The notes under the pieces: generated by a model
The model's input: only the letters and a program-made list of their open reading frames with translations
What the model was told of the DNA's origin: nothing
The model's database searches: none
NCBI GenBank assembly: GCA_019058315.1
Contig: JAHPZH010000003.1
Location: 460,451-524,450, forward strand
Reading direction: 5' to 3'
DNA length: 64,000 bases
From: Candidatus Helarchaeota archaeon
GTDB lineage: Archaea > Asgardarchaeota > Lokiarchaeia > Helarchaeales > RDOG01
Shown: piece after piece, positions 4,461 to 28,073 of the stretch
Layout: every line of letters starts with the position of its first letter
How positions within the stretch are numbered: the first letter of the stretch is position 1
Position numbers and translations under genes: made by a program

Positions 4461-6257
4461 TTATTTTTTCACTGTCATTTCTGGGGCAACTTCTTTTTTC
4501 TTTACTTCTCTTTTCCAAGAATTCGGGTTATAGGAAGCAGCACCAGCAAAGTCCATTAATGTGTTTTCCTTGGGATTAACACGCACATCTAATACAGCGG
4601 GAACACCAGAATCAAACGCTCGTTTTAGAGCTGGTTGAATATCATTTGGATCATTTATTAACTCTCCGTAACAATCGAAAGCTTCTGCATATTTATCATA
4701 TCGTGTGTTATCACTCAAAGATGATCCTAAACCAAAGTATTTTCTTCCATGTGCTAATTTTTGGACTCGTGCTACCATGCCCCAAAGTCTATCATTTGAA
4801 ATAACTACAACAAAGGGCAAATTGTGTCTTCGAGCTGTATCAATTTCTTTGCCATTGAATAAGAATGAACCATCACCAGTTAGTACTAGGACCTTCTTTT
4901 CTGGATGTGCATATTTAGTCGCAATAGCCATAGGTACACCACCACCGAGATGTTGCAGTCCCAGACCACCTGAAAAATATAAACATTTTGGAAAAAAAGC
5001 ATGCCCTTGTAGATACATCAAGCCCCAAATAGTTGTATCGCCTCCATCTAAAATGATAATACCATCATTTGGCATAAAATCACCTATTTCCTTGGCTAAT
5101 CGCTGGGGCTTAATTGGTATTTTTTCAGATGTCCCATCTTTAGCGATGCGAGCATAAAACTTTTCTCTTTCTGTTTCCACTCGTTTAACCCATGGGGTGA
5201 CAGCTTTTGGTTTATTATTTAACTTCTTTTTAGTAATATGGACTAATTGAGTTAGAACACCTTTTACATCTCCCACTATTGGAACATCAATACCCCGATT
5301 GCGTCCTATTTCTTCTGCTTTGATATCAACTTGGATGAGTTTAGCCTCATCAGAAAACATGGGAGTATAACCAAAATTCATCAATTCTGTAATTCTCGAC
5401 CCTAATATCAGAGCGACGTCAACTTCTTGCATTAATGCTTGTCCTGGACCTTCTAATAAAGTTGCCAAGCCGAAATATAGAGGATCATCTGAAGGAAAGG
5501 AACCTATCCCGAAACCCCAACATCCTACAGGAGTTTGTACTAAATGGGCAAATTCAATGAGTTCTTTAGAGGCATCGGAAATTCCTACACCAGTTCCGGC
5601 CATAATTAAAGGCCTTTCAGCATTTAGTAATAAATCCACAGCTTTTGATACTAGTTCACTATTTCCATACGGCCCATGGAACGCTCGAAGTTTTTGTACA
5701 GGTACAAATGCTTGTTGAACAATATTTAATTCGTCGTTACATTCTTTTACCATAACATCAACTGGAACAAGAAGTAAGGTGGGTCCTGGCTGACCCGTTG
5801 TAGCTATTCGGAATGCCATATTAACGTACTCGGGTAGACGAGCAGTTTCGTAACAATAACCAGTCCATTTTGTTACCGAACGAAATGCGGGAGCAACATC
5901 AATTTCGTTTGCAGCCCATTTATCAAAAGTCATCATGGGAGTTGTTGAACATATAGCTACCACTGGGATACTTGCATCTTTAGCTAGTGGAAGAGCAGGG
6001 AATAAATCCGTGATTCCCGGTCCTGATTGTACTGAACAGACTCCAACTTCGCCCGTTGCCATAAAATAGCCCATAGCAGCATGACCAGTGGCTTGTTCAT
6101 GCCTAAAATCAATTAAATCTATTCCCGTTTCTGTGCAAGATTTGTCCTGACAATAATTATAAATCATATCGTTATCGCCACAAAGTGTAAAAATGACTTT
6201 AACACCTTGATTGCTTAAAGCTCGTACTATCAATTGTGCTCCATTAACCTTTACCAT
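4461..6257 (-). CDS. Thiamine diphosphate-dependent enzyme, acetolactate synthase / 2-hydroxyacyl-CoA lyase-like family
   Basis: RHEQ catalytic Glu motif, SGPG, ThDP-binding GDGS...(x24)...ND motif. Confidence 0.88.
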   Translation of the reverse strand: MVKVNGAQLIVRALSNQGVKVIFTLCGDNDMIYNYCQDKSCTETGIDLIDFRHEQATGHAAMGYFMATGEVGVCSVQSGPGITDLFPALPLAKDASIPVVAICSTTPMMTFDKWAANEIDVAPAFRSVTKWTGYCYETARLPEYVNMAFRIATTGQPGPTLLLVPVDVMVKECNDELNIVQQAFVPVQKLRAFHGPYGNSELVSKAVDLLLNAERPLIMAGTGVGISDASKELIEFAHLVQTPVGCWGFGIGSFPSDDPLYFGLATLLEGPGQALMQEVDVALILGSRITELMNFGYTPMFSDEAKLIQVDIKAEEIGRNRGIDVPIVGDVKGVLTQLVHITKKKLNNKPKAVTPWVKRVETEREKFYARIAKDGTSEKIPIKPQRLAKEIGDFMPNDGIIILDGGDTTIWGLMYLQGHAFFPKCLYFSGGLGLQHLGGGVPMAIATKYAHPEKKVLVLTGDGSFLFNGKEIDTARRHNLPFVVVISNDRLWGMVARVQKLAHGRKYFGLGSSLSDNTRYDKYAEAFDCYGELINDPNDIQPALKRAFDSGVPAVLDVRVNPKENTLMDFAGAASYNPNSWKREVKKKEVAPEMTVKK

Positions 6258-6453
6258 AAAATTCTCTCCAATATGTAATTTCTTGATATTATATTGTTTA
6301 TTTAATATTTTATTTATTACTGAAAATCAGCAAATACTAATTCTACTACAAATTATACTTTAAAAGAATTTAATGAGCTGTTTTCCTTATTAAAAAAATT
6401 TATGAATACCCAAAACAATATTAGATTTCAACAAAATTATGAGATGGAAATAG

Positions 6454-6951
6454 ATGAATATAAAAGATTTAGAAAAAGATGCTAAAACTGCAACTGATAC
6501 TCCAAAAGGTGCAATAAAATTTTTAGTAAATTGTCTATATGTATATCAACAAGGTAATGACAAAGCCCTTGGCTATATGGGCTATGTACTCGCAAAAAGT
6601 TTTTGTGAAGAGGATAATTCTTCTCCAAGCGGTTATAAACCAAATAAAAGATATACTGGTCTCATTAAGAGCTTAAAGGAACATAGAAAACGAAATTCAG
6701 TGTTATCTACTATGGGTGGTACATGGGAGCAAGATTACAAAGATATAGATCCCGACAATTATGAACTCCCCTTTACCAAAGAAACCATGGATGGGGAGGA
6801 GACAAGATTCTTTATCAATGCTGGTGGTCGAGATCTAGATTTTCCTGTAAATGTAAGGCAAAACAATAAAGGTCAATGGAAGATTATGGGTGGACTCTCG
6901 ACAATGTGCATGGATGTTAGACCTACTAAAACCGAAAAAGGAGATTTTTAA
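6454..6951 (+). CDS. Hypothetical protein (DUF6935-like), tandem paralog 1
   Basis: 165 aa; TPKGA..., GGTWEQDY, AGGRD..., QNNKGQWK motifs shared with the next gene. Confidence 0.7.
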   Translation: MNIKDLEKDAKTATDTPKGAIKFLVNCLYVYQQGNDKALGYMGYVLAKSFCEEDNSSPSGYKPNKRYTGLIKSLKEHRKRNSVLSTMGGTWEQDYKDIDPDNYELPFTKETMDGEETRFFINAGGRDLDFPVNVRQNNKGQWKIMGGLSTMCMDVRPTKTEKGDF

Positions 6952-19182: not shown

Positions 19183-20358
19183 TTGAGAGAAAACAAATTG
19201 TCTGCAATAGTTAATAAAATCAAGAATATTAAAAGTAAGAAGGCACAGGAAGCAATTGAAAAATTACGTAAAAATTTCACCATATTTCCTACTGATCTTA
19301 AAATAAATGATAAGGGACAGTTAATAAAATTTGTATTAAATAAGAAAGGTCATTACTTTAGAAGAATTCCTGCGGGATTTAATGACTTTCCCGATTTGAT
19401 ACATTTAATTCTTTCAGAAAATGAGATAAATGAAATACAATATTTAGAAAACCTCACAAAATTAGAAAAATTGTATTTCTTTAAAAATAAGATAAAAAAA
19501 ATTGAGGGATTGGAGAATCTATCCAAATTAAAGGTACTGAATATAGCTCATAACCAACTTACAAAGATAGCCAATTTAGAAAATCTTTCGGAACTAAAAC
19601 AGTTAATTCTATACCAAAATAAAATCAAAAAGTTAGAGGGACTAGAAGGACTACCAAAATTAGAATTATTAAATTTTAGGAAGAATAAAATAACAAAAAT
19701 TGAAGCAATTAGTCATTTATCGCAATTAAAAAGTATAAGTCTGAGTTTTAATAATATTAAAAAAATAGAAGGATTAGATCAATTTCATAAATTAGAAGAA
19801 TTATATTTACGGCATAATCAAATTGAAAAAATAGAGGGATTGGATAATCTAACTAATTTAGAAATATTAGATCTTTCAGAAAATAAATTAATTAAAAAAA
19901 TTGAAGGATTAGACCATCTTACTAACCTAAAAATAATAGTATTGGGTAGTAATCAAATTAAAAAAATTGAAGGATTAGATAATCTATCAAATCTAGAACG
20001 TTTATGTCTTGATAAAAATCAAATAACTAGAATAGAGGGATTAGATCAACTTTCACAATTGAAAGATTTAGATTTATTATATAATCAGATTACACGATTA
20101 AAGGGAATAGAAAATCTTCTAAGCCTAAAAACTTTGAAAATTATTAAGAATAATTTAATAGCAGAAGATAAAAAAATTTATGATTCTGGTAGAACAGATA
20201 TCGTAAAGAGGTATAGGAAAAAGGTATTAAAAGAGCTAACTACAAGAGTTGAATTTTTACAAAGAAAAATGAATATGAAAGGATTAAGGTTAGTCGATTA
20301 TCAAAATATCAAAGAACAAATAGATGAAATATATAGGAGAATACAAGAATTCAACTAA
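19183..20358 (+). CDS. SDS22-like leucine-rich repeat protein
   Basis: About 11 x 22-aa NxIxKIEGLxxLxxLxxLxL repeats. Confidence 0.9.
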   Translation: MRENKLSAIVNKIKNIKSKKAQEAIEKLRKNFTIFPTDLKINDKGQLIKFVLNKKGHYFRRIPAGFNDFPDLIHLILSENEINEIQYLENLTKLEKLYFFKNKIKKIEGLENLSKLKVLNIAHNQLTKIANLENLSELKQLILYQNKIKKLEGLEGLPKLELLNFRKNKITKIEAISHLSQLKSISLSFNNIKKIEGLDQFHKLEELYLRHNQIEKIEGLDNLTNLEILDLSENKLIKKIEGLDHLTNLKIIVLGSNQIKKIEGLDNLSNLERLCLDKNQITRIEGLDQLSQLKDLDLLYNQITRLKGIENLLSLKTLKIIKNNLIAEDKKIYDSGRTDIVKRYRKKVLKELTTRVEFLQRKMNMKGLRLVDYQNIKEQIDEIYRRIQEFN

Positions 20359-20378: not shown

Positions 20379-21323
20379 GTGGGAAAAATGAAAATAGCAG
20401 CAATACAAATGATGGCTGAGTTTGCAAATGTAGAAGCAAATCTTAAAATTACTAAAAGACTTGCTAATCAAGCCTTTTCTGAGGGTGCAGAGTGGGTGAT
20501 TCTACCTGAGTTTTTTACATCTGCAATGGGCTTCCATAAAAAAATGCTTGATGTAGCAAGACCCATTGATAGTAAACCTATGCAATTGCTTAAAAATCTG
20601 GCTGTTAAGCATAATGGTGTTGTAGGCGGTTCTTTTATAGCATATCGTGGAGAAGATTGTTATAACACATTTGTATTAACTTTTCCAGAAGGATCAACTT
20701 ATTTTCATGATAAAGATCAACCCACTATGTGGGAAAATTGTTATTATTTAGGAGGAACAGATGACGGAATATTAAAAACTAGAGTTGGTAATATTGGTGT
20801 TGCACTTTGTTGGGAATTTGTGCGTGCTCGTACAGTTAAACGGTTGTTGAATAAAGTAGATTTAATAGTGGGTGGATCCTGCTGGTGGACAGTTCCCGAA
20901 GAGCTTCCACAGGGGTTTTCTCTAAAAACTCACGAACGTAATGTGGAAATTATGAGTGAAACACCATCTAGATTCGCACGAATGCTTGGAGTTCCTGTTA
21001 TTCATTCCGCACATGCTGGAAATTTTGAAGGAGGGATGCCAAACATGCCTGATTTTATCTATAAATCTTATTATTTAGGCGATACTCAAATAGTAGATGG
21101 TAGTGGAAAAATACTCACTCGATTGAAACGTGAAGAGGGAGAAGGTATTATTATAGCAGATATAGATATAACAAAAAAGTGGACCCCATCTGAATCCATC
21201 CCTAATCGTTTTTGGATACCAGATTTACCACAAGAGCTTATATTATCATGGGAATTTTTGAATAAACATGGAGAGAATTATTACAGTACAAAAACAAAAC
21301 CTTATTTAAAGAAAAATAAGTAA
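20379..21323 (+). CDS. Carbon-nitrogen hydrolase (nitrilase superfamily)
   Basis: Glu-Lys-Cys triad: LPEFF, HDK, LCWE. Confidence 0.88.
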   Translation: MGKMKIAAIQMMAEFANVEANLKITKRLANQAFSEGAEWVILPEFFTSAMGFHKKMLDVARPIDSKPMQLLKNLAVKHNGVVGGSFIAYRGEDCYNTFVLTFPEGSTYFHDKDQPTMWENCYYLGGTDDGILKTRVGNIGVALCWEFVRARTVKRLLNKVDLIVGGSCWWTVPEELPQGFSLKTHERNVEIMSETPSRFARMLGVPVIHSAHAGNFEGGMPNMPDFIYKSYYLGDTQIVDGSGKILTRLKREEGEGIIIADIDITKKWTPSESIPNRFWIPDLPQELILSWEFLNKHGENYYSTKTKPYLKKNK

Positions 21324-21341: not shown

Positions 21342-21977
21342 TTAGGATATTGATTTGATCATATTTTCCTTTGAATTTACATTGATATTGAAATATGTAC
21401 TACTTAAGTTTGTATAATTCCATGTCCGAGGCAAGTCTGTATCTTTATACTCATTTATTTTTGCAGAAGCTACATAGATTGTCCCGTCAATCATAGGTGA
21501 ATTGACAACCTTTGTAGGTTTTCCAGACATATCTAATAATGGTTTAGTTTTTAAACTAAAGATTCCGGGAATATCAATCGAAAATTTTGCCGCTGGACCC
21601 TTTCGTAAGATTTTTTTGGTGAAATTAATTTCTGCTTTTTTTATTTTAAGCAATTCGCCGAAGCCCTTCCAAATTTTTGTAAAAATCTTTTCTAACGCAT
21701 TTGCTTGCTCATCATTAGCATTTTGATCGATATAGAGGATTCCTTTCCAGTTTCCCATGCCTTCCATGATTGTCTTTCCTTCTGGGGTAATAAAGCCGAT
21801 ACTTATTATCGTTCCGCTTATATCTACATCTCCATATTTTCCTTCATCTATATTCATTGTCATAACACCCTCGCAGCAGCCTCTAGGAAATGGAGATAAA
21901 AAGTAAGCAGGACATATTGGCGGTGATCCACAAGCTTCAACCCAATCTCCTTTAAAATACCATTCAACTTCAGACAA
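21342..21977 (-). CDS. DUF1326 family protein
   Basis: W.F.G.WVEAC...CP...C.G, G.YGDVDISG, YID..A...Q..AL..IF pattern. Confidence 0.75.
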   Translation of the reverse strand: MSEVEWYFKGDWVEACGSPPICPAYFLSPFPRGCCEGVMTMNIDEGKYGDVDISGTIISIGFITPEGKTIMEGMGNWKGILYIDQNANDEQANALEKIFTKIWKGFGELLKIKKAEINFTKKILRKGPAAKFSIDIPGIFSLKTKPLLDMSGKPTKVVNSPMIDGTIYVASAKINEYKDTDLPRTWNYTNLSSTYFNINVNSKENMIKSIS

Positions 21978-22046: not shown

Positions 22047-23057
22047 TTATTTTTTTTCCATATTTTCAATAAGATGAAAACAATATGGATTGTTGTGAAA
22101 TTTATTTGTTAAAATATAAGAAACCGAATTACAGCCCCCCTTACATTGAATTCCAAATTTACAATCTTTACAATTTGGTCCCAATTTTGATTTCTCAAAT
22201 TTTCTATTATATGCAAAATTACTCGGGTTTTCCCAGATATCTATTAAACTCTCATTTCTCACATTTCCCTCTATAAAACGATCGTTTCCCATTGATAAAC
22301 AACCCACAATCCCACCATCACTCGTTATTCCTATACTACTTATTCCTGCCCAGCAGCCATCCCATTGAGAAAGAGGTAAATTTGCAGAATAATATCCAAG
22401 ACAGTGAGCCCCTACGACCGGTAAATCATCAAATAAATTATTTTTTCTCATAGCAGCTATGAATTTTCCCGTTTCATAAAATTCTTCTTTTGATAACATC
22501 TTATCTTTTTTGAAATTCCCAAATGGCATTGCGGTTTGTATTTGCCAGTTTATTCCCTTTTTAAATATGAAATCTTTAATCAAGGGCAAGTCTCCAAAAT
22601 TAATTCTACTCACCGTTGTGATAATTGTTATCTGTATTTCGTTTTCTCTTAATAATTCAATAGCTTTTACAGATTTTTCCCAAGTTCCTTTCCCTCTTAT
22701 TAAATCATGGCTTTCTTGCATTCCATCAATACTGATCCCAATAACTTGTGGTTCAAGTCGAGTTATTTCTTCGATATATCGATCTAAAATAATACCGTTA
22801 GATACAAAATTTACGTTCATGCCAAGATCTTTGATGCATTGAGCAACAGAAAGCCAATCATTTCTTAGAAATGGCTCTCCTCCCATTAGAGCTACTTCTT
22901 CACAACCAAGTTCGGCCAATTCTTCACAGAGTTTAAAACATTCCTTTGTGTTCAATTCATCAGGTCTGGCTTTACCTGCAGATGAGCCACAGTGAGAACA
23001 ATTTAGATTACATTCTAATGTAAATTCCCATATTGCACATTCTAATTGGTAATTCAT
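22047..23057 (-). CDS. Radical SAM/SPASM peptide-modifying enzyme, PlpX-type splicease-like
   Basis: WEFTLECNLNCSHCGS (CX3CX2C), GGEPFLR.DW, WQIQTAMPFG, CLGYY, WDGCWAG...GI..DG.I.GC.S, SPASM CKDCX5CX3C...NPYC. Confidence 0.88.
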   Translation of the reverse strand: MNYQLECAIWEFTLECNLNCSHCGSSAGKARPDELNTKECFKLCEELAELGCEEVALMGGEPFLRNDWLSVAQCIKDLGMNVNFVSNGIILDRYIEEITRLEPQVIGISIDGMQESHDLIRGKGTWEKSVKAIELLRENEIQITIITTVSRINFGDLPLIKDFIFKKGINWQIQTAMPFGNFKKDKMLSKEEFYETGKFIAAMRKNNLFDDLPVVGAHCLGYYSANLPLSQWDGCWAGISSIGITSDGGIVGCLSMGNDRFIEGNVRNESLIDIWENPSNFAYNRKFEKSKLGPNCKDCKFGIQCKGGCNSVSYILTNKFHNNPYCFHLIENMEKK

Positions 23058-23069
23058 TATTATTCCTAG

Positions 23070-23267
23070 TTATTTCCTCGAATAAACACCATAGCTTGGT
23101 GGAGCAGGTTTTGGGATGGGACGTTTCTTTTCTTTGTCTTTATTTTTGGGACCGGGATTTGATATAGGATTTGACTTAGAAGACGGTTTCGGTGGTGGAG
23201 GAGATCCTTTTTGGTGATAAGGGTATCCTCGTTTGGGATGTTTGGTTACTTTTTTTTCTTTTTCCAT
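23070..23267 (-). CDS. Putative RiPP precursor peptide A3 (65 aa)
   Basis: Lys/Pro-rich; KRGYPY and APPSYGVY boxes; ends 12 nt before the rSAM start. Confidence 0.85.
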   Translation of the reverse strand: MEKEKKVTKHPKRGYPYHQKGSPPPPKPSSKSNPISNPGPKNKDKEKKRPIPKPAPPSYGVYSRK

Positions 23268-23303
23268 AATATTTTACCCATTGATACATCTAATATAATT
23301 TAA

Positions 23304-23441
23304 TTAATCTAGTTTATAAACACCATAACGTGGCGGTGATTTGGGCTCTATTTTTTCTTCATCTGACTTATCTTTTAATTTAATTGATGATGTGTTTTTA
23401 AACGGATAACCCTTTTTTTTTGTTTCTTTCTTAATACTCAT
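23304..23441 (-). CDS. Putative RiPP precursor peptide A2 (45 aa): MSIKKETKKKGYPFKNTSSIKLKDKSDEEKIEPKSPPRYGVYKLD
   Basis: Hand-translated, not in the ORF track; GGAGGT SD 6 nt before the ATG; same two boxes. Confidence 0.85.
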   Translation of the reverse strand: MSIKKETKKKGYPFKNTSSIKLKDKSDEEKIEPKSPPRYGVYKLD

Positions 23442-23442
23442 G

Positions 23443-23583
23443 TTAATACCTCCTTTTATAAACCCCATATTTAGGAGGGGATTCTTCTTTAAGTGGACTA
23501 ATTTCCTTCTCTTTATCCTTTGATTTTAAATTTTTTGGAATTGAAAATGGATATCCTTTTCTTTTTTCTTTTTTTGAACTCAA
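23443..23583 (-). CDS. Putative RiPP precursor peptide A1 (46 aa): MSSKKEKRKGYPFSIPKNLKSKDKEKEISPLKEESPPKYGVYKRRY
   Basis: Hand-translated, not in the ORF track; TTG start preceded by GAGGA; stop 1 nt before the A2 ATG; same two boxes. Confidence 0.83.
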   Translation of the reverse strand: MSSKKEKRKGYPFSIPKNLKSKDKEKEISPLKEESPPKYGVYKRRY

Positions 23584-23656: not shown

Positions 23657-24925
23657 CTATTCAATAATTGGTTCTCTTGGAATGTCAAAGCTTTTCTTAT
23701 TTTTAAATTCCTTTAATTCAAGTTCAATTTTCTCCTTACCTATTTTATCTTGAACTATGGTCAAAGCTTTTTCGTAATTTTGTATAATTTTATGATTTTT
23801 AAATTCCAAAATACAGCCCAGTCGTGCAATATTCCAATAGATTAGGTAATTATCAGGATTTAACTTTGAAGATGTTAAAAAATAATCTAAAGCTTGACTG
23901 AAATTTTGTTTATAAAAATTTTTTATACCAAAATTGAATAATTTGTCAGCTTGTAGTAGAATTAATTCAAAATCGAATATTTTGATATCTTTAGGCTCTA
24001 AATTTAAAATATAACTTAATCTTTCACTATAATCCTCGGGATAATTTAATATATCTAATATTAAATTCTCTAAATGGCTAATAAATTCTTTAAATTCGCT
24101 TTCTAATTCACCCAAATTTTTCTTTTTTTTCATCCATAATGAAAAAACTTTTTCATGGAATTTGATTTCAGCTAATTTCATTAGAAATTTGATTTTAGCT
24201 TCCATTTCTGTCGGTTTTAAAATACCAGCGGATAAACATTCCTCAAGAAATACTAATGGAATCTGTGGTGTGCAAATTATGGTTTGAGATATTAGTTTAT
24301 TTTGCCAGTTTTCATCATTATCAAAGATTTCAAATGCGGTTTTAAGCTGATCTTCAAGGGGAATTAATACAAAGGAATCGTTAATCTTTAGTTTATTACT
24401 TAAATTCTTCCTAAAACAGGCAAAAAGATGTTTTTTGGAAGAATTTTGAGGTTTTTCACAAATTATTCTCAATCCATATTCATATTTATGGGTTTTTTGT
24501 TCTTCTTTCCTTATATTTCCAAAACCAATTTCTTCTAAAAGCTCCTTGATTAATTTATAAGTAAAACCAGTTTTGTGTTGCATCCCTCTACTATCTATTC
24601 CATAAATCCATCTCAATGTTATTTTTTGATTATCCAGATCTTCAGCAACTAGTTTTTCAAAGGATTTCTCAAGGTCAGGAGTTTCTAATATTAATTTTCC
24701 CGATGGAATCAGAATTCTAAACCAATCACTAAGAATATATTTAGAATGGATATAATCAAAATGCTCAATTAATTGATCAGCTTCAATTAAATCAATAGTA
24801 TTGGATTCAAATGGAAGATTATCAATGTCGTAGATTTCATCTGCTACATCTTTATTATATTTGTCGATATTAATATAACCAGGTTTATATTTTGAACCAC
24901 ATCCGAGGTTAAGCTTGATTTTCAT
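23657..24925 (-). CDS. Class I SAM-dependent methyltransferase with C-terminal helical/TPR domain
   Basis: KLNLGCG motif I, LPF..NTID, IEHF, L.P.G.L.L.TPD; C-terminal TPR (ALDYF...LNPDNYLIYWNIA); start probably MKIK at 24925. Confidence 0.8.
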   Translation of the reverse strand: MKIKLNLGCGSKYKPGYINIDKYNKDVADEIYDIDNLPFESNTIDLIEADQLIEHFDYIHSKYILSDWFRILIPSGKLILETPDLEKSFEKLVAEDLDNQKITLRWIYGIDSRGMQHKTGFTYKLIKELLEEIGFGNIRKEEQKTHKYEYGLRIICEKPQNSSKKHLFACFRKNLSNKLKINDSFVLIPLEDQLKTAFEIFDNDENWQNKLISQTIICTPQIPLVFLEECLSAGILKPTEMEAKIKFLMKLAEIKFHEKVFSLWMKKKKNLGELESEFKEFISHLENLILDILNYPEDYSERLSYILNLEPKDIKIFDFELILLQADKLFNFGIKNFYKQNFSQALDYFLTSSKLNPDNYLIYWNIARLGCILEFKNHKIIQNYEKALTIVQDKIGKEKIELELKEFKNKKSFDIPREPIIE

Positions 24926-25949
24926 CCAATTCTTCACTTTTTTTAAAATTCGCTTTTAATAATTTGAATAGTCTTAAAGTGCTTGTTGCTGCTTCATCAT
25001 TAGGATCTAATTTGAGTGCTTGTTCTAGGCACTCAATGCCCTTTGATATATTTGCTAGATTACTTTTTCCATATAAATAACCCATATAATACCATGCTTT
25101 ACTGTTTTTCGGATCGATCTCAGTTACTTTTTCCAGATACTTAATAGATTTTTGATAAGCTTCTATTTTAGCATAAGCAGATGCTAACTTAAACATTGCG
25201 ATGCTATCTTCTGGGTCGATTTCGACTTCAATTTCACGACATTCTAGTACTCTATATTCTTTTCCGATAATTTCATAAATGTCCCCCAATTTAGTCCATG
25301 CTTCTTTGTAATTTGGATCTGTCTTGACTGCTTTATCAAGACATTCAATAGCTTTCTTATATTTTTTGAGATTAAGGAATGCAAGCCCCATAACAAACCA
25401 AGCTTCACTTCCCATAGGATCCAGTCGTACAATTTTTTCAAAAGATTTTATGGCTTTTCTATAACTTTCTATGGAAACATAAGAATTTCCCAAGTTTAAC
25501 CAAGCTTGTTTAAACTTTGGGAAAATTTCTACAGCTTTTTCATAGCAATTAATTGCTTTTTGTGGATCTTTTAGTTTATCATGAGAAATTCCCATGTTAA
25601 ACCAATAATTTTGATTATTTTCATCAATTTTTATAGCTTTATTAAAACAAACAATTGCTTTATTATATCTTTTTAACATGTTACAAGCCAAACCTAGATT
25701 ATACCACCCAACCTTATTATTCGGATCGATTGTGACAGCTTTTGTACAGTAATTTATTGTTTTTTCATAATCTCCATATATTTTACCAATATAGAGACCT
25801 AAATAATTCCAAGCCATACTATGATTTGGATCTATCTTAACAGCATTAATAAAACACTGAATTGCTTTTTTTAAATCGGCTTTTTGAGCTAAATATAAAC
25901 CCCTATCAAACCATTCTTTGGCTGCCATTCCCGTTATTAATTTTGACAT
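24909..25949 (-). CDS. Tetratricopeptide repeat protein
   Basis: About 9 TPR units (W..LG...A...F.KA..IDP); overlaps the methyltransferase gene. Confidence 0.92.
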   Translation of the reverse strand: MSKLITGMAAKEWFDRGLYLAQKADLKKAIQCFINAVKIDPNHSMAWNYLGLYIGKIYGDYEKTINYCTKAVTIDPNNKVGWYNLGLACNMLKRYNKAIVCFNKAIKIDENNQNYWFNMGISHDKLKDPQKAINCYEKAVEIFPKFKQAWLNLGNSYVSIESYRKAIKSFEKIVRLDPMGSEAWFVMGLAFLNLKKYKKAIECLDKAVKTDPNYKEAWTKLGDIYEIIGKEYRVLECREIEVEIDPEDSIAMFKLASAYAKIEAYQKSIKYLEKVTEIDPKNSKAWYYMGYLYGKSNLANISKGIECLEQALKLDPNDEAATSTLRLFKLLKANFKKSEELDENQA

Positions 25950-26034
25950 TTAGATTCCCTAACTAAAGATCAAATTCTTTTATTTTCCTCCATTGTACAA
26001 GATTTTTTGTATTATATTAAATTTTATATTATTG

Positions 26035-27042
26035 TTAATTGGCTTCTAAATTTTCTTTCATCAATTTTAATAAGGCTAAAACTCTTAATGCCTCATCATT
26101 AGTTGAGTCCAATTTTAAGGCTTCCTCTACGCATTCAATCCCCTTCTTTGGATCCTCCAAATCACCATAAAAGAGCCCCATATTATACCAAGCTTCTATA
26201 TTATTTGGATCAAGCTTAATAACCTTATCGAAACATTCAATCCCTTTTTGATGATCACCATCACTACCATATGCAACACCCTGGTTATATAATGCATCAA
26301 TATATTTTGGATCTAAATTAAGTGCTTTTTGATACCATTTGATAGCCAATTTATGTTTATTTTGGTTGCTATAGGCAACTCCTACGTAATTCATAGATAT
26401 TTTATCTTGGGGGTTACATCTTACTGCTTTTTGGTAACTTTTAACAGCTTTGGAATAATCTTCTAATCTTAGATGTGTATAACCAATAGCTGCGTAAGTT
26501 TTAGAATTTTTCTTATCAATTTCAACAGCTTTTTCTAAACAATCGATTGCTTTATGGTAATCTTCTAATTCGATATATGTAATTCCCATGTCAAACCAGC
26601 TATCTTTATAATTTGGATTGATTTTTACTGACTCTTCATAGCAATCAATAGCTTCTTTTAATTTACCTGTTTTTTGATATGCAATACCAATATCGTGTAA
26701 GTAGAGTGTTCGAGTAGGCATTATTTTTAGTGCTTTTTTGAAATAGGGAATTGCCTCTTGATATCTTTTTAACTTATTGAGAGCCCATCCCACACTATGC
26801 AAAGCGTAGCGATCATTGGGATCTAGTTTAACTGCTTCTTCACAGTATTTCAAGGTCGTTTGATAATCACCAAGTTGACCCAAAAACCATCCGTAGTTAT
26901 TTAGAGCTTCTAGATTCTTAGGGTCTATTTTTAATACATTTCCAAAGCATTCAGCTGCCATTTGATAATTTTCCTCTCTAGAGTATTTAAATCCAAGGTT
27001 AGCCCATTGTTTAGCATCTTTTCCTTTAACTGTTTTTGGCAG
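26035..27042 (-). CDS. Tetratricopeptide repeat protein (probable CTG start, 335 aa)
   Basis: Frame open upstream of the listed ATG to AGGAG-N6-CTG at 27042; the extension encodes the first TPR helix. Confidence 0.88.
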   Translation of the reverse strand: MPKTVKGKDAKQWANLGFKYSREENYQMAAECFGNVLKIDPKNLEALNNYGWFLGQLGDYQTTLKYCEEAVKLDPNDRYALHSVGWALNKLKRYQEAIPYFKKALKIMPTRTLYLHDIGIAYQKTGKLKEAIDCYEESVKINPNYKDSWFDMGITYIELEDYHKAIDCLEKAVEIDKKNSKTYAAIGYTHLRLEDYSKAVKSYQKAVRCNPQDKISMNYVGVAYSNQNKHKLAIKWYQKALNLDPKYIDALYNQGVAYGSDGDHQKGIECFDKVIKLDPNNIEAWYNMGLFYGDLEDPKKGIECVEEALKLDSTNDEALRVLALLKLMKENLEAN

Positions 27043-27071
27043 TCTGATCTCCTACTTACATTTTATAATTA

Positions 27072-28073
27072 TTAATTAGAATCCAAATTTTCTTTCATCA
27101 ATTTTAATAAGGCTAAAACTCTTAATGCCTCATCATTATTTGAGTCCAATTTTAAAGCTTCCTCTACGCATTCAATCCCCTTCTTTGGATCCTCTAAATC
27201 ACCATAAAAGAGCCCCATATTATACCAAGCTTCAATATTATTTGGATCAAGCTTAATAACTTTATCGAAGCATTCGATTCCTTTTTGATGATCACCATCA
27301 CTACCATATGCAACACCCTGGTTATATAACGCATCAATATATTTTGGGTCTATTTTAAGTGCTTTTTGATACCATTTGATAGCTAATTTATGTTTATCTT
27401 GGTTGCTATAGGCAACTCCTACGTAATTCATAGATATTTTATCTTTAGGATCACATCTTACTGCTTTTTGGTAACTTTTAACAGCTTTGGGATAAACCTC
27501 TAAGCTTAGGTATGCATAACCAATAGCTGAGTAAGCTTTACAGTTTTTCTTTCCAGTAGCTTTTTCTAAACAATCAATTGCTTTATGGAAATCTTTTAAT
27601 TCTAAATACGTAATTCCCATGTCAAACCAGCCGTCTTGGAATTTTGGGTCGATTTTTACTGACTTTTCATAGCAATCAATAGCTTTTTTTAATTTACCCG
27701 TTTTTTGATATGCAAAACCAAGATCGTGTAAGTAGTCTGTTCGTCCAGATATTATTTTCATCGCTTTTTTGAAATTAGGAATTGCTTCTTGATATCTTTG
27801 TAACTTATTGAGAGCCCAGCCTACACTATGCCAAGCGTAATGATAATTAGGATCAAGTTTCACCGCCTCTTCACAGTATTTCAAGGTCTTTTGATAATCA
27901 CCAAGCTGACCTGAAAACCAACCATAGTTATTTAAAGCATCTACATTCTTAGGTTCTATTTTTAGTACATTTCCAAAGCTTTCAGCTGCCTTTTGAAAGT
28001 TATTCTCACCAGAATATTTATATCCGAGCTCAGACCATTGTTTGGCGTTCTTTCCTTTAACCGTCTTTGGCAG
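27072..28073 (-). CDS. Tetratricopeptide repeat protein, tandem duplicate (probable CTG start, 333 aa)
   Basis: Frame open to AGGAG-N6-CTG at 28073; highly similar to the adjacent gene. Confidence 0.88.
   Translation of the reverse strand: MPKTVKGKNAKQWSELGYKYSGENNFQKAAESFGNVLKIEPKNVDALNNYGWFSGQLGDYQKTLKYCEEAVKLDPNYHYAWHSVGWALNKLQRYQEAIPNFKKAMKIISGRTDYLHDLGFAYQKTGKLKKAIDCYEKSVKIDPKFQDGWFDMGITYLELKDFHKAIDCLEKATGKKNCKAYSAIGYAYLSLEVYPKAVKSYQKAVRCDPKDKISMNYVGVAYSNQDKHKLAIKWYQKALKIDPKYIDALYNQGVAYGSDGDHQKGIECFDKVIKLDPNNIEAWYNMGLFYGDLEDPKKGIECVEEALKLDSNNDEALRVLALLKLMKENLDSN

Follow-up and report, generated by a model that had tools for sequence, protein, structure and literature searches.

The tyramine spliceases of the spliceotide pathways, namely PlpX and PcpX (type I, working with PlpY) and RhaX, RcsX and RasX (binary type II), act at a published splice motif X-Y-G, and the PlpX family is the one described by the NCBIfam model TIGR04103, nif11-class maturase 3. 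To our knowledge, spliceases are the only enzymes that excise atoms from the protein backbone, leaving beta-amino acids with a reactive ketoamide, and the cases we know as proven from the spliceotide literature cited here are bacterial. Here we describe a cluster of genes for a compact radical S-adenosylmethionine (SAM) enzyme with a SPASM region, a methyltransferase and three short peptides with two tyrosine motifs each, found in a 64,000-nucleotide stretch of a Candidatus Helarchaeota archaeon genome (assembly GCA_019058315.1, contig JAHPZH010000003.1, positions 460,451 to 524,450; this whole stretch is called the window below). According to one source (PMC11626197), a 2022 survey found spliceotide clusters in both bacterial and archaeal genomes (Scott et al., 2022, Chem). 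PlpXY needs no leader and recognises its substrate by a tag of about ten residues (PMC11414181, PMC10533398). In the published splice tags PIRP-L-YG-LPI and AVAA-G-YG-VVFP, V or L comes after the x-Y-G and is itself succeeded by a hydrophobic residue (PMC10533398).

Our best guess, which we hold tentatively, is that the locus is a three-part post-translational modification cassette performing tyramine splicing at a tyrosine motif. A compact radical SAM/SPASM enzyme from the splicease superfamily would form one part and a methyltransferase-helical fusion protein another; the third would be the substrates with their two tyrosine motifs, comprising the three leaderless, soluble, basic peptides of 45-65 aa, probably a soluble 163-aa protein and, less surely, a soluble 101-aa protein encoded elsewhere in the genome. 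The C-terminal tail of the peptide is predicted to thread into the TIM barrel of the enzyme, which would then carry out radical chemistry at the tyrosine of the C-terminal motif. The methyltransferase might introduce a second modification, possibly at or near GYP(F/Y), or its helical domain might hold the substrate in place of an RRE protein. The two short motifs would have to suffice for recognition, since the leader helix and membrane segments seen in the precursors of related loci are gone.

The gene cluster and its three peptides

Five co-oriented genes on the minus strand make up the cluster: the 426-aa methyltransferase gene, three small genes and the 336-aa radical SAM/SPASM gene, with intergenic gaps of 1, 36 and 12 nt from position 23583 downward. 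The first-pass annotation of the window had described three co-oriented small genes of 46, 45 and 65 aa, the last ending 12 nt before the radical SAM/SPASM gene, and this was confirmed by the open reading frame (ORF) listing and the sequence. The features are as follows.

23657-24937, minus strand: methyltransferase-helical fusion protein, 426 aa (Pfam, AlphaFold2, Foldseek, tblastn)
23443-23583, minus strand: precursor peptide 1, 46 aa, TTG start with GAGGA 6 nt upstream; GYPF at 23545-23556, PPKYGVY at 23458-23478
23304-23441, minus strand: precursor peptide 2, 45 aa, ATG start after AGGAGG; GYPF at 23400-23411, PPRYGVY at 23316-23336
23070-23267, minus strand: precursor peptide 3, 65 aa, with a Pro/Lys-rich linker; GYPY at 23217-23228, PPSYGVY at 23082-23102
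22047-23057, minus strand: radical SAM/SPASM enzyme, 336 aa; CNLNCSHC at 22989-23012, NWQIQ at 22536-22550, SPASM region at 22080-22403
21342-21977, minus strand: DUF1326 protein, 211 aa, 69 nt downstream of the radical SAM gene (Pfam match)

An alternative 54-aa reading of precursor peptide 2, from 23468, was judged less likely. All three peptides have (K/R)GYP(F/Y) at residues 10-17 and PPxYGVY three to four residues from the C-terminus; both boxes, and the divergent Lys/Glu/Pro-rich linkers between them that the first-pass annotation had also pointed out, were borne out by translation of the motif coordinates. The isoelectric points of the peptides are 9.7-10.3, no hydrophobic segment is present in any of the three, and none of them matched a family in Pfam or NCBIfam.

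Two further metagenomic contigs, L085 (from a Promethearchaeota assembly; radical SAM enzyme 82% identical) and L110 (86%), have the corresponding set of three peptide genes, in unchanged order and placed ahead of the orthologous radical SAM gene. In pairwise comparisons among the window, L085 and L110, each peptide differed at 6-13 codons synonymously and at 6-15 non-synonymously, and both motifs were invariant. X-Y-G-V-(Y/F) is present in all six peptides of the window and L085, in the three of L110 and in the additional two-motif proteins of the genome. When the source genome (5.8 Mb in 12 contigs) was searched, 4-5 of 32,623 small ORFs had GYP[FY] near the start together with Y[GNSD]V[YF] near the end, compared with 0.0 in shuffled sequences (100 rounds). 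Since the orthologous sets differ at many codons while the motifs do not, and since shuffles give none, the three small genes with both motifs are confirmed as real and conserved, beyond what chance would produce.

The radical SAM/SPASM enzyme and its predicted complex with peptide 2

CxxxCxxC occupies residues 16-23 of the enzyme, whose SPASM region is complete and contains eight conserved cysteines (Pfam Radical_SAM and SPASM). In the alignment with spliceases the enzyme shows no RRE domain, no N-terminal domain ahead of the CxxxCxxC motif and no C-terminal extension. The best NCBIfam matches are TIGR04103 (229.6 bits) and TIGR03913 (198.4), the two families that the first-pass annotation had named, followed by TIGR04133 (160.3), AhbD (134.7) and MftC (130.7), with all five scores well short of the curated cut-offs; the enzyme covers positions 3-351 of 412 in the first profile and 21-361 of 477 in the second. 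A SPASM paralogue in the same genome has NirJ2 and AhbD as its top matches and reaches only 111 bits with TIGR04103. Because the paralogue ranks heme-type families first, the TIGR04103 ranking of the window enzyme is specific rather than generic.

Comparison with plasmid-borne proteins by tblastn gave a similar picture, with PGAP-named members of TIGR04103 and TIGR03913 being 32-34% identical over the full length, against 27% for MftC; the plasmid TIGR04103 member from Nostoc adjoins a Nif11 precursor ending in LYG. The segments WE.TL.CNL.C.HCGS.AG, WQIQ, GYY, W.GC.AG...GI..DG...GC and NPYC are common to the enzyme and the TIGR04103 and TIGR03913 members and are missing from MftC and NirJ. The signature segments that the first-pass annotation had listed as splicease-like are confirmed by this alignment. 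A sequence search against solved structures returned generic radical SAM matches only (SkfB, PqqE, anSME), and no splicease structure is known.

In a maximum-likelihood tree of 60 rows with Shimodaira-Hasegawa-like approximate likelihood ratio test (SH-aLRT) support, the window's family (44 rows, support 90) joins a group (87) that also holds the TIGR04103/TIGR03913 clade (99), an Agathobacter protein and TIGR04133, with MftC, NirJ and the other SPASM proteins of the genome outside. The superfamily is very large, with 531 cluster representatives at E < 1e-30 in a full-library search, and in a FastTree tree of 170 rows the window's family falls within a 33-row clade (support 96). By sequence comparison, the closest characterised relatives of the enzyme are the spliceases, yet it lies outside their families. 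The earlier designation of the enzyme as PlpX-like holds in so far as it groups with the named families and apart from MftC, NirJ and the heme-type paralogue, but with a clade of its own it is not a member of the PlpX family.

For the complex model, the enzyme was represented by an 18-row alignment and peptide 2 by one of 6 rows, and SAM and three 4Fe-4S clusters were included. The complex scored 0.82 (median of three runs) versus 0.02 for the best control, a mark attained by 58 of the 80 solved complexes and by 2 of the 110 mismatched pairs; because custom alignments and ligands went into the model, these benchmark counts are rough. Agreement between the runs extends to at least 64% of contacts, and the predicted local distance difference test (pLDDT) value of the partner is at least 36. 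The confident interface is formed by residues 32-44 of peptide 2, EPKSPPRYGVYKL, with Gly40, Val41 and Tyr42 modelled against enzyme residues 56-58 (adjoining the GGE motif), 83-85, 104-107, 142-146, 170-175 (the NWQIQ segment), 213-221 and 230-237; the Tyr-Gly-Val residues are placed against GGE, NWQIQ and SPASM-linker residues. Many of the modelled contact residues are invariant in the family and several are common to spliceases. The model supports binding of the peptide tail in the TIM barrel of the enzyme but does not demonstrate it. The GYPF motif was not placed in the model. Inspection by eye gave no clear pattern of covariation between the residue after the tyrosine and the modelled contact residues.

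The methyltransferase partner, related precursors and spread of the cassette

The 426-aa protein consists of an N-terminal class I SAM-dependent methyltransferase domain (approximately residues 1-165) and an all-helical C-terminal domain (approximately 167-412). Pfam gave weak matches to Methyltransf_11 and Methyltransf_23, the AlphaFold2 model (pLDDT 89.5) has about eleven helices in the helical domain, and Foldseek matched it to class I methyltransferases (E 2e-5). The SAM-motif residues LGCG and N.D, together with EH, are invariant among the homologues. As seen by tblastn, a homologue stands beside the radical SAM gene in most of about 90 loci, which came from contig look-ups and from scanning species genomes with an alignment query (a single-protein query gave 3 loci only). 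The gene order is either methyltransferase-precursors-radical SAM or radical SAM-precursors-methyltransferase, and natural fusions of the methyltransferase with the radical SAM enzyme occur as well (cluster representatives P0149, 728 aa, and P0147, 834 aa). The constant core of the cassette is the radical SAM enzyme together with the class I methyltransferase.

Some variations on this arrangement were also seen. P0124 (731 aa) is a superfamily fusion that joins two radical SAM enzymes in tandem, and loci of the Thermoplasmatales type (L027, L032, L033, L035, L042) have two tandem radical SAM paralogues with a methyltransferase and short, soluble precursors with a leader helix. On a plasmid of Aureibacter tunicatorum (L102:1650-4420), three DUF1843 peptides starting with x-Y-(A/G)-A are followed by a TIGR03913-like radical SAM enzyme and a 187-aa class I methyltransferase; with the methyltransferase adjacent, this cluster is a bacterial parallel to the pairing described here.

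The Asgard hosts of the cassette include Promethearchaeota, among them the cultured Promethearchaeum syntrophicum MK-D1, and Thor-, Hod-, Heimdall- and Hermodarchaeota; the Asgard-archaeal origin proposed for the window fits its nearest named homologues and synteny. Other hosts are Thermoplasmatota, DPANN lineages, Elusimicrobiota, Chloroflexota, Thermodesulfobacteriota and Nitrospirota. Within the phylum of the window the distribution is patchy (31 of 201 genomes searched, 19 of the 85 high-quality ones). Because the window's copy shares 55-77% identity with copies from other classes and phyla but 44-47% with those of its own class, the sequences suggest lateral spread of the cassette.

Precursors with tyrosine motifs adjoin the enzyme in nearly all loci, just as the first-pass annotation had expected for homologues, and the second tyrosine is invariant. 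Profile searches built from the neighbours recovered 126 distinct precursors, which fall into two cross-detecting groups. Precursors of the close clade are 115-180 aa long and run, from the N-terminus, through an amphipathic helix, a first membrane segment, (G/S/T)YP(F/Y) and another membrane segment to the tail xY(G/N/D/S)V(Y/F), some of them carrying two copies of each motif (L006, L087). Thor, Loki and Elusimicrobia precursors combine the helix with a single hydrophobic segment and the compact core Y-P-x-G-x-x-Y-(G/S)-(T/S)-I-S-x-x-D-F, and those of Thermoplasmatales are soluble, 57-85 aa long, and made of helix and core. In one precursor of the Thermoplasmatales type (L030:2591-2848) the core, VYKAGTxYGT(V/I)S, is repeated three times in tandem. 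A set of Elusimicrobia precursors (L055:5533-5844, L078, L065, L053, L081, L064, L075) has a Cys-flanked core CGPYPGYPCGTRY(Y/F)TVS.

Cassettes with membrane-type precursors, such as that of Promethearchaeum syntrophicum MK-D1 (L025, with three precursors at 5435-6849), share with the window the radical SAM family (44-86% identity), the methyltransferase and the two tyrosine motifs. Their precursors of 85-180 aa, however, carry one or two membrane segments besides an N-terminal amphipathic helix (IGxxLxL/VxxxDI), whereas those of the window, L085 and L110 have neither, and in the genome of the window the motif pair is also found on soluble proteins elsewhere. Leaderless short precursors (43-65 aa) free of membrane segments were seen only in the window, L085 and L110, and loci whose radical SAM enzymes are 73-75% identical keep the membrane type. 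Profile hidden Markov models (HMMs) made from the membrane-type precursors of the relatives do not detect the short peptides of the window, so that the link between the two rests on the two motifs and the gene position. Read in this way, the window precursors are cut-down versions of a widespread superfamily of membrane-protein precursors, from which the leader helix and the membrane segments would have been lost. The first-pass annotation had seen in them an unrecognised, non-Nif11 precursor family; they are indeed unrelated to Nif11, but they belong to this superfamily rather than standing isolated.

Possible chemistry at the tyrosine motif, putative portable tags and neighbouring genes

Several observations favour tyramine splicing. 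The nearest characterised families are spliceases, found as the best HMM and BLAST matches, and the barrel-lining motifs and signature segments are held in common. As in the spliceotide systems, tandem precursor genes lie beside the enzyme, and in the substrates x-Tyr-Gly is followed by Val, Leu or Ile; the x-Y-G-V-hydrophobic context of the window peptides resembles the PlpXY splice tags PIRPLYGLPI and AVAAGYGVVFP. Recognition through a short core tag and not a leader would be a further likeness to PlpXY (PMC11414181, PMC10533398). A range of residues (L, R, Y, K, F, M and others) is found ahead of the second tyrosine, as is expected for a residue that becomes a beta-amino acid. In a neighbouring radical SAM clade, a 237-aa Pro-rich precursor (L112:1770-2483) has five x-Y-G-(I/F) sites and one x-Y-S-I.

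The locus differs from the described spliceotide systems in other respects. Identity to spliceases is 32-36%, no gene for a PqqD-like Y protein is present in the window cluster and the window peptides lack an activating leader helix. The cassette precursors are unrelated to Nif11, NHLP and DUF1843, and the hosts are mainly archaea.

A number of findings weigh against splicing. The TIGR04103 and TIGR03913 scores, although the top ones, lie far below the respective cut-offs of 725 and 591.75, and at 336 aa the enzyme is shorter than the known spliceases (412-516 aa), with 60-150 C-terminal residues missing. In the 170-row tree the known splicease families occupy another clade, of 111 rows, amid many unstudied ones, and at 34% identity the chemistry can differ. 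The cassette has an obligatory methyltransferase-helical partner and a second invariant tyrosine motif (Y-P), neither with a stated role in the spliceotide pathway literature cited. The X-Y-G motif on which the first-pass annotation had relied is present in all peptides of the window and its orthologues, but family-wide the requirement for glycine is relaxed: it follows the tyrosine in 75 of 130 precursors (approximately 58%), the remainder having Ser (23), Asn (11), Asp (7), Ala (4) or, in Elusimicrobia, Tyr or Phe. Another neighbouring-clade precursor, a 132-aa protein with PSPW repeats (L111:1962-2360), has three x-Y-D-(G/A)-P sites; the radical SAM enzymes at L112 and L111, which belong to other clades of the superfamily, are 41-45% identical to that of the window. 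Finally, the complex model cannot tell which hydrogen would be abstracted or which atom faces SAM.

Some of these points would also fit a different reaction at the same tyrosine, which we consider somewhat unlikely: a carbon-carbon or carbon-oxygen crosslink made by the radical SAM enzyme, for instance a three-residue cyclophane between the tyrosine ring and the beta-carbon of the residue two positions on in Y-x-(V/T/S/A), or another, undescribed tyrosine modification. The residue after the tyrosine is variable, while the one beyond it belongs to the set V, T, S and A, all with a beta-carbon, in 130 of the 132 precursors, and an aromatic-X-X3 pattern would fit them better than a strict X-Y-G; the separation of the enzyme's clade from the proven spliceases points the same way. 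The aromatic-X-X3 motif, its variable middle residue and the repeats in some precursors also recall the triceptides made by radical SAM/SPASM 3-CyFE enzymes. However, the regular expression used required V, T, S or A, which biases the count, and a hydrophobic residue two positions after the tyrosine occurs in the proven PlpXY tags too, where it may serve binding only. The enzyme has no RRE domain and no strong match to 3-CyFE families, and no triceptide-type maturase family is among its 25 best NCBIfam matches (all at least 70 bits), against 198-230 bits for the splicease families; the motif context is likewise closer to splice tags.

The presence of two tyrosine motifs also allows for a crosslink between them, in which a Tyr-Tyr or Tyr-backbone bond would join the N-terminal GYP(F/Y) to the C-terminal YGVY and close a ring. 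Both motifs are found family-wide, six residues apart in the Thor, Loki and Thermoplasmatales forms, and the pair occurs doubled (L006, L087), tripled (L030) and at both ends of otherwise unrelated proteins in the window's genome. Nevertheless we regard such a ring as improbable, given that a predicted membrane helix separates the motifs in the closest relatives, that the complex model places with confidence the C-terminal motif alone and that no known enzyme of the superfamily performs such a crosslink.

It is very improbable that the small ORFs are unexpressed, or not substrates, and that the radical SAM enzyme has some other substrate. The lack of any match to a curated family among the peptides would agree with this, but their orthologues keep invariant motifs amid many synonymous changes, their position between the methyltransferase and radical SAM genes is the precursor position in about 80 other loci, and the complex model passes its controls. 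A mycofactocin-like pathway, with the Gly-Val-Tyr of YGVY processed like MftA by an MftC-like enzyme to a redox cofactor, can hardly be entertained, for although G-V-Y is the C-terminal tripeptide of MftA and the MftC model does match, the tyrosine after the valine is followed by 3-4 residues and its position varies family-wide (I, Y, F, V, S), which largely refutes the idea, and moreover the MftC score is well short of the cut-off of 265, MftC is outside the clade in the 60-row tree and neither MftB nor other mycofactocin genes are adjacent among the window ORFs.

Returning to splicing and its possible substrates, two further proteins in the genome carry both motifs. A 163-aa helical protein (C3:73443-73934) has KGYPF at residues 10-14 and RYGVYKQD at the C-terminus, and its full-length metagenomic homologues P0275 and P0276 keep both. 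A 101-aa protein (C5:1134431-1134736) carries TGYPF close to its N-terminus and ends in PPPRYGVYSKI; its sole homologue keeps the N-terminal motif and not the C-terminal one, and the gene caller starts the protein later. The gene of the 101-aa protein lies 660 bp from a divergent gene for a 491-aa NirJ2/AhbD-like SPASM protein. The product of this second radical SAM gene is a heme-type SPASM enzyme, and the adjacency is therefore regarded as coincidental.

As otherwise unrelated proteins carry both motifs at their ends, the sequences suggest that the two motifs act as portable terminal tags. A wider proposal, rather unlikely in our estimate, is that the radical SAM-methyltransferase pair is not a natural-product pathway and serves as a general archaeal protein-tagging system, in which any protein, be it a membrane protein, a short basic peptide or a folded soluble protein, with a (K/R)GYP(F/Y) tag close to the N-terminus and an xYGV(Y/F) tag at the C-terminus would be edited at the tyrosines by a chemistry that either is new or places reactive ketoamides in cellular proteins.

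Should splicing be true, Asgard and other archaea would join the known range of the splicease superfamily, bringing with them a new family of precursors and a methyltransferase partner that is obligatory; ketoamides derived from Lys, Arg and Ser would be candidate warheads for protease inhibitors, and for protein labelling the short tag could serve as a compact tool. Should another reaction be true, the radical SAM chemistry would be new, and its substrate motif a very widespread one. The contribution of the window is the minimal soluble form of the precursors with orthologues in two contigs, together with the terminal-tag proteins, an enzyme-tail model that passes controls and the natural methyltransferase-radical SAM fusions. 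The membrane-protein form is widespread but hard to handle, and soluble leaderless substrates of 45 aa with a 336-aa enzyme make the tyrosine chemistry directly testable in E. coli.

Of the neighbouring genes, that for the DUF1326 protein also lies downstream in L085 and L110 and does not adjoin the cassette in the remaining loci examined; it is syntenic in the closest relatives only and is therefore not counted in the system, its membership being doubtful. The cluster is further flanked by genes for a leucine-rich-repeat protein (391 aa, 19183-20358) and a carbon-nitrogen hydrolase (314 aa, 20379-21323), the latter syntenic in L085 together with DUF1326. Several genes with TPR repeats at 24909-28073 (minus strand) run co-directionally toward the methyltransferase gene, the last of them overlapping it by 29 nt. 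L085 has instead a 191-aa TPR gene after the radical SAM gene, and TPR genes are not constant in other loci. In L085, two additional genes (L085:1004-1795), coding for a 110-aa membrane protein and a 147-aa longin-like protein, are found between the methyltransferase gene and the three peptide genes.

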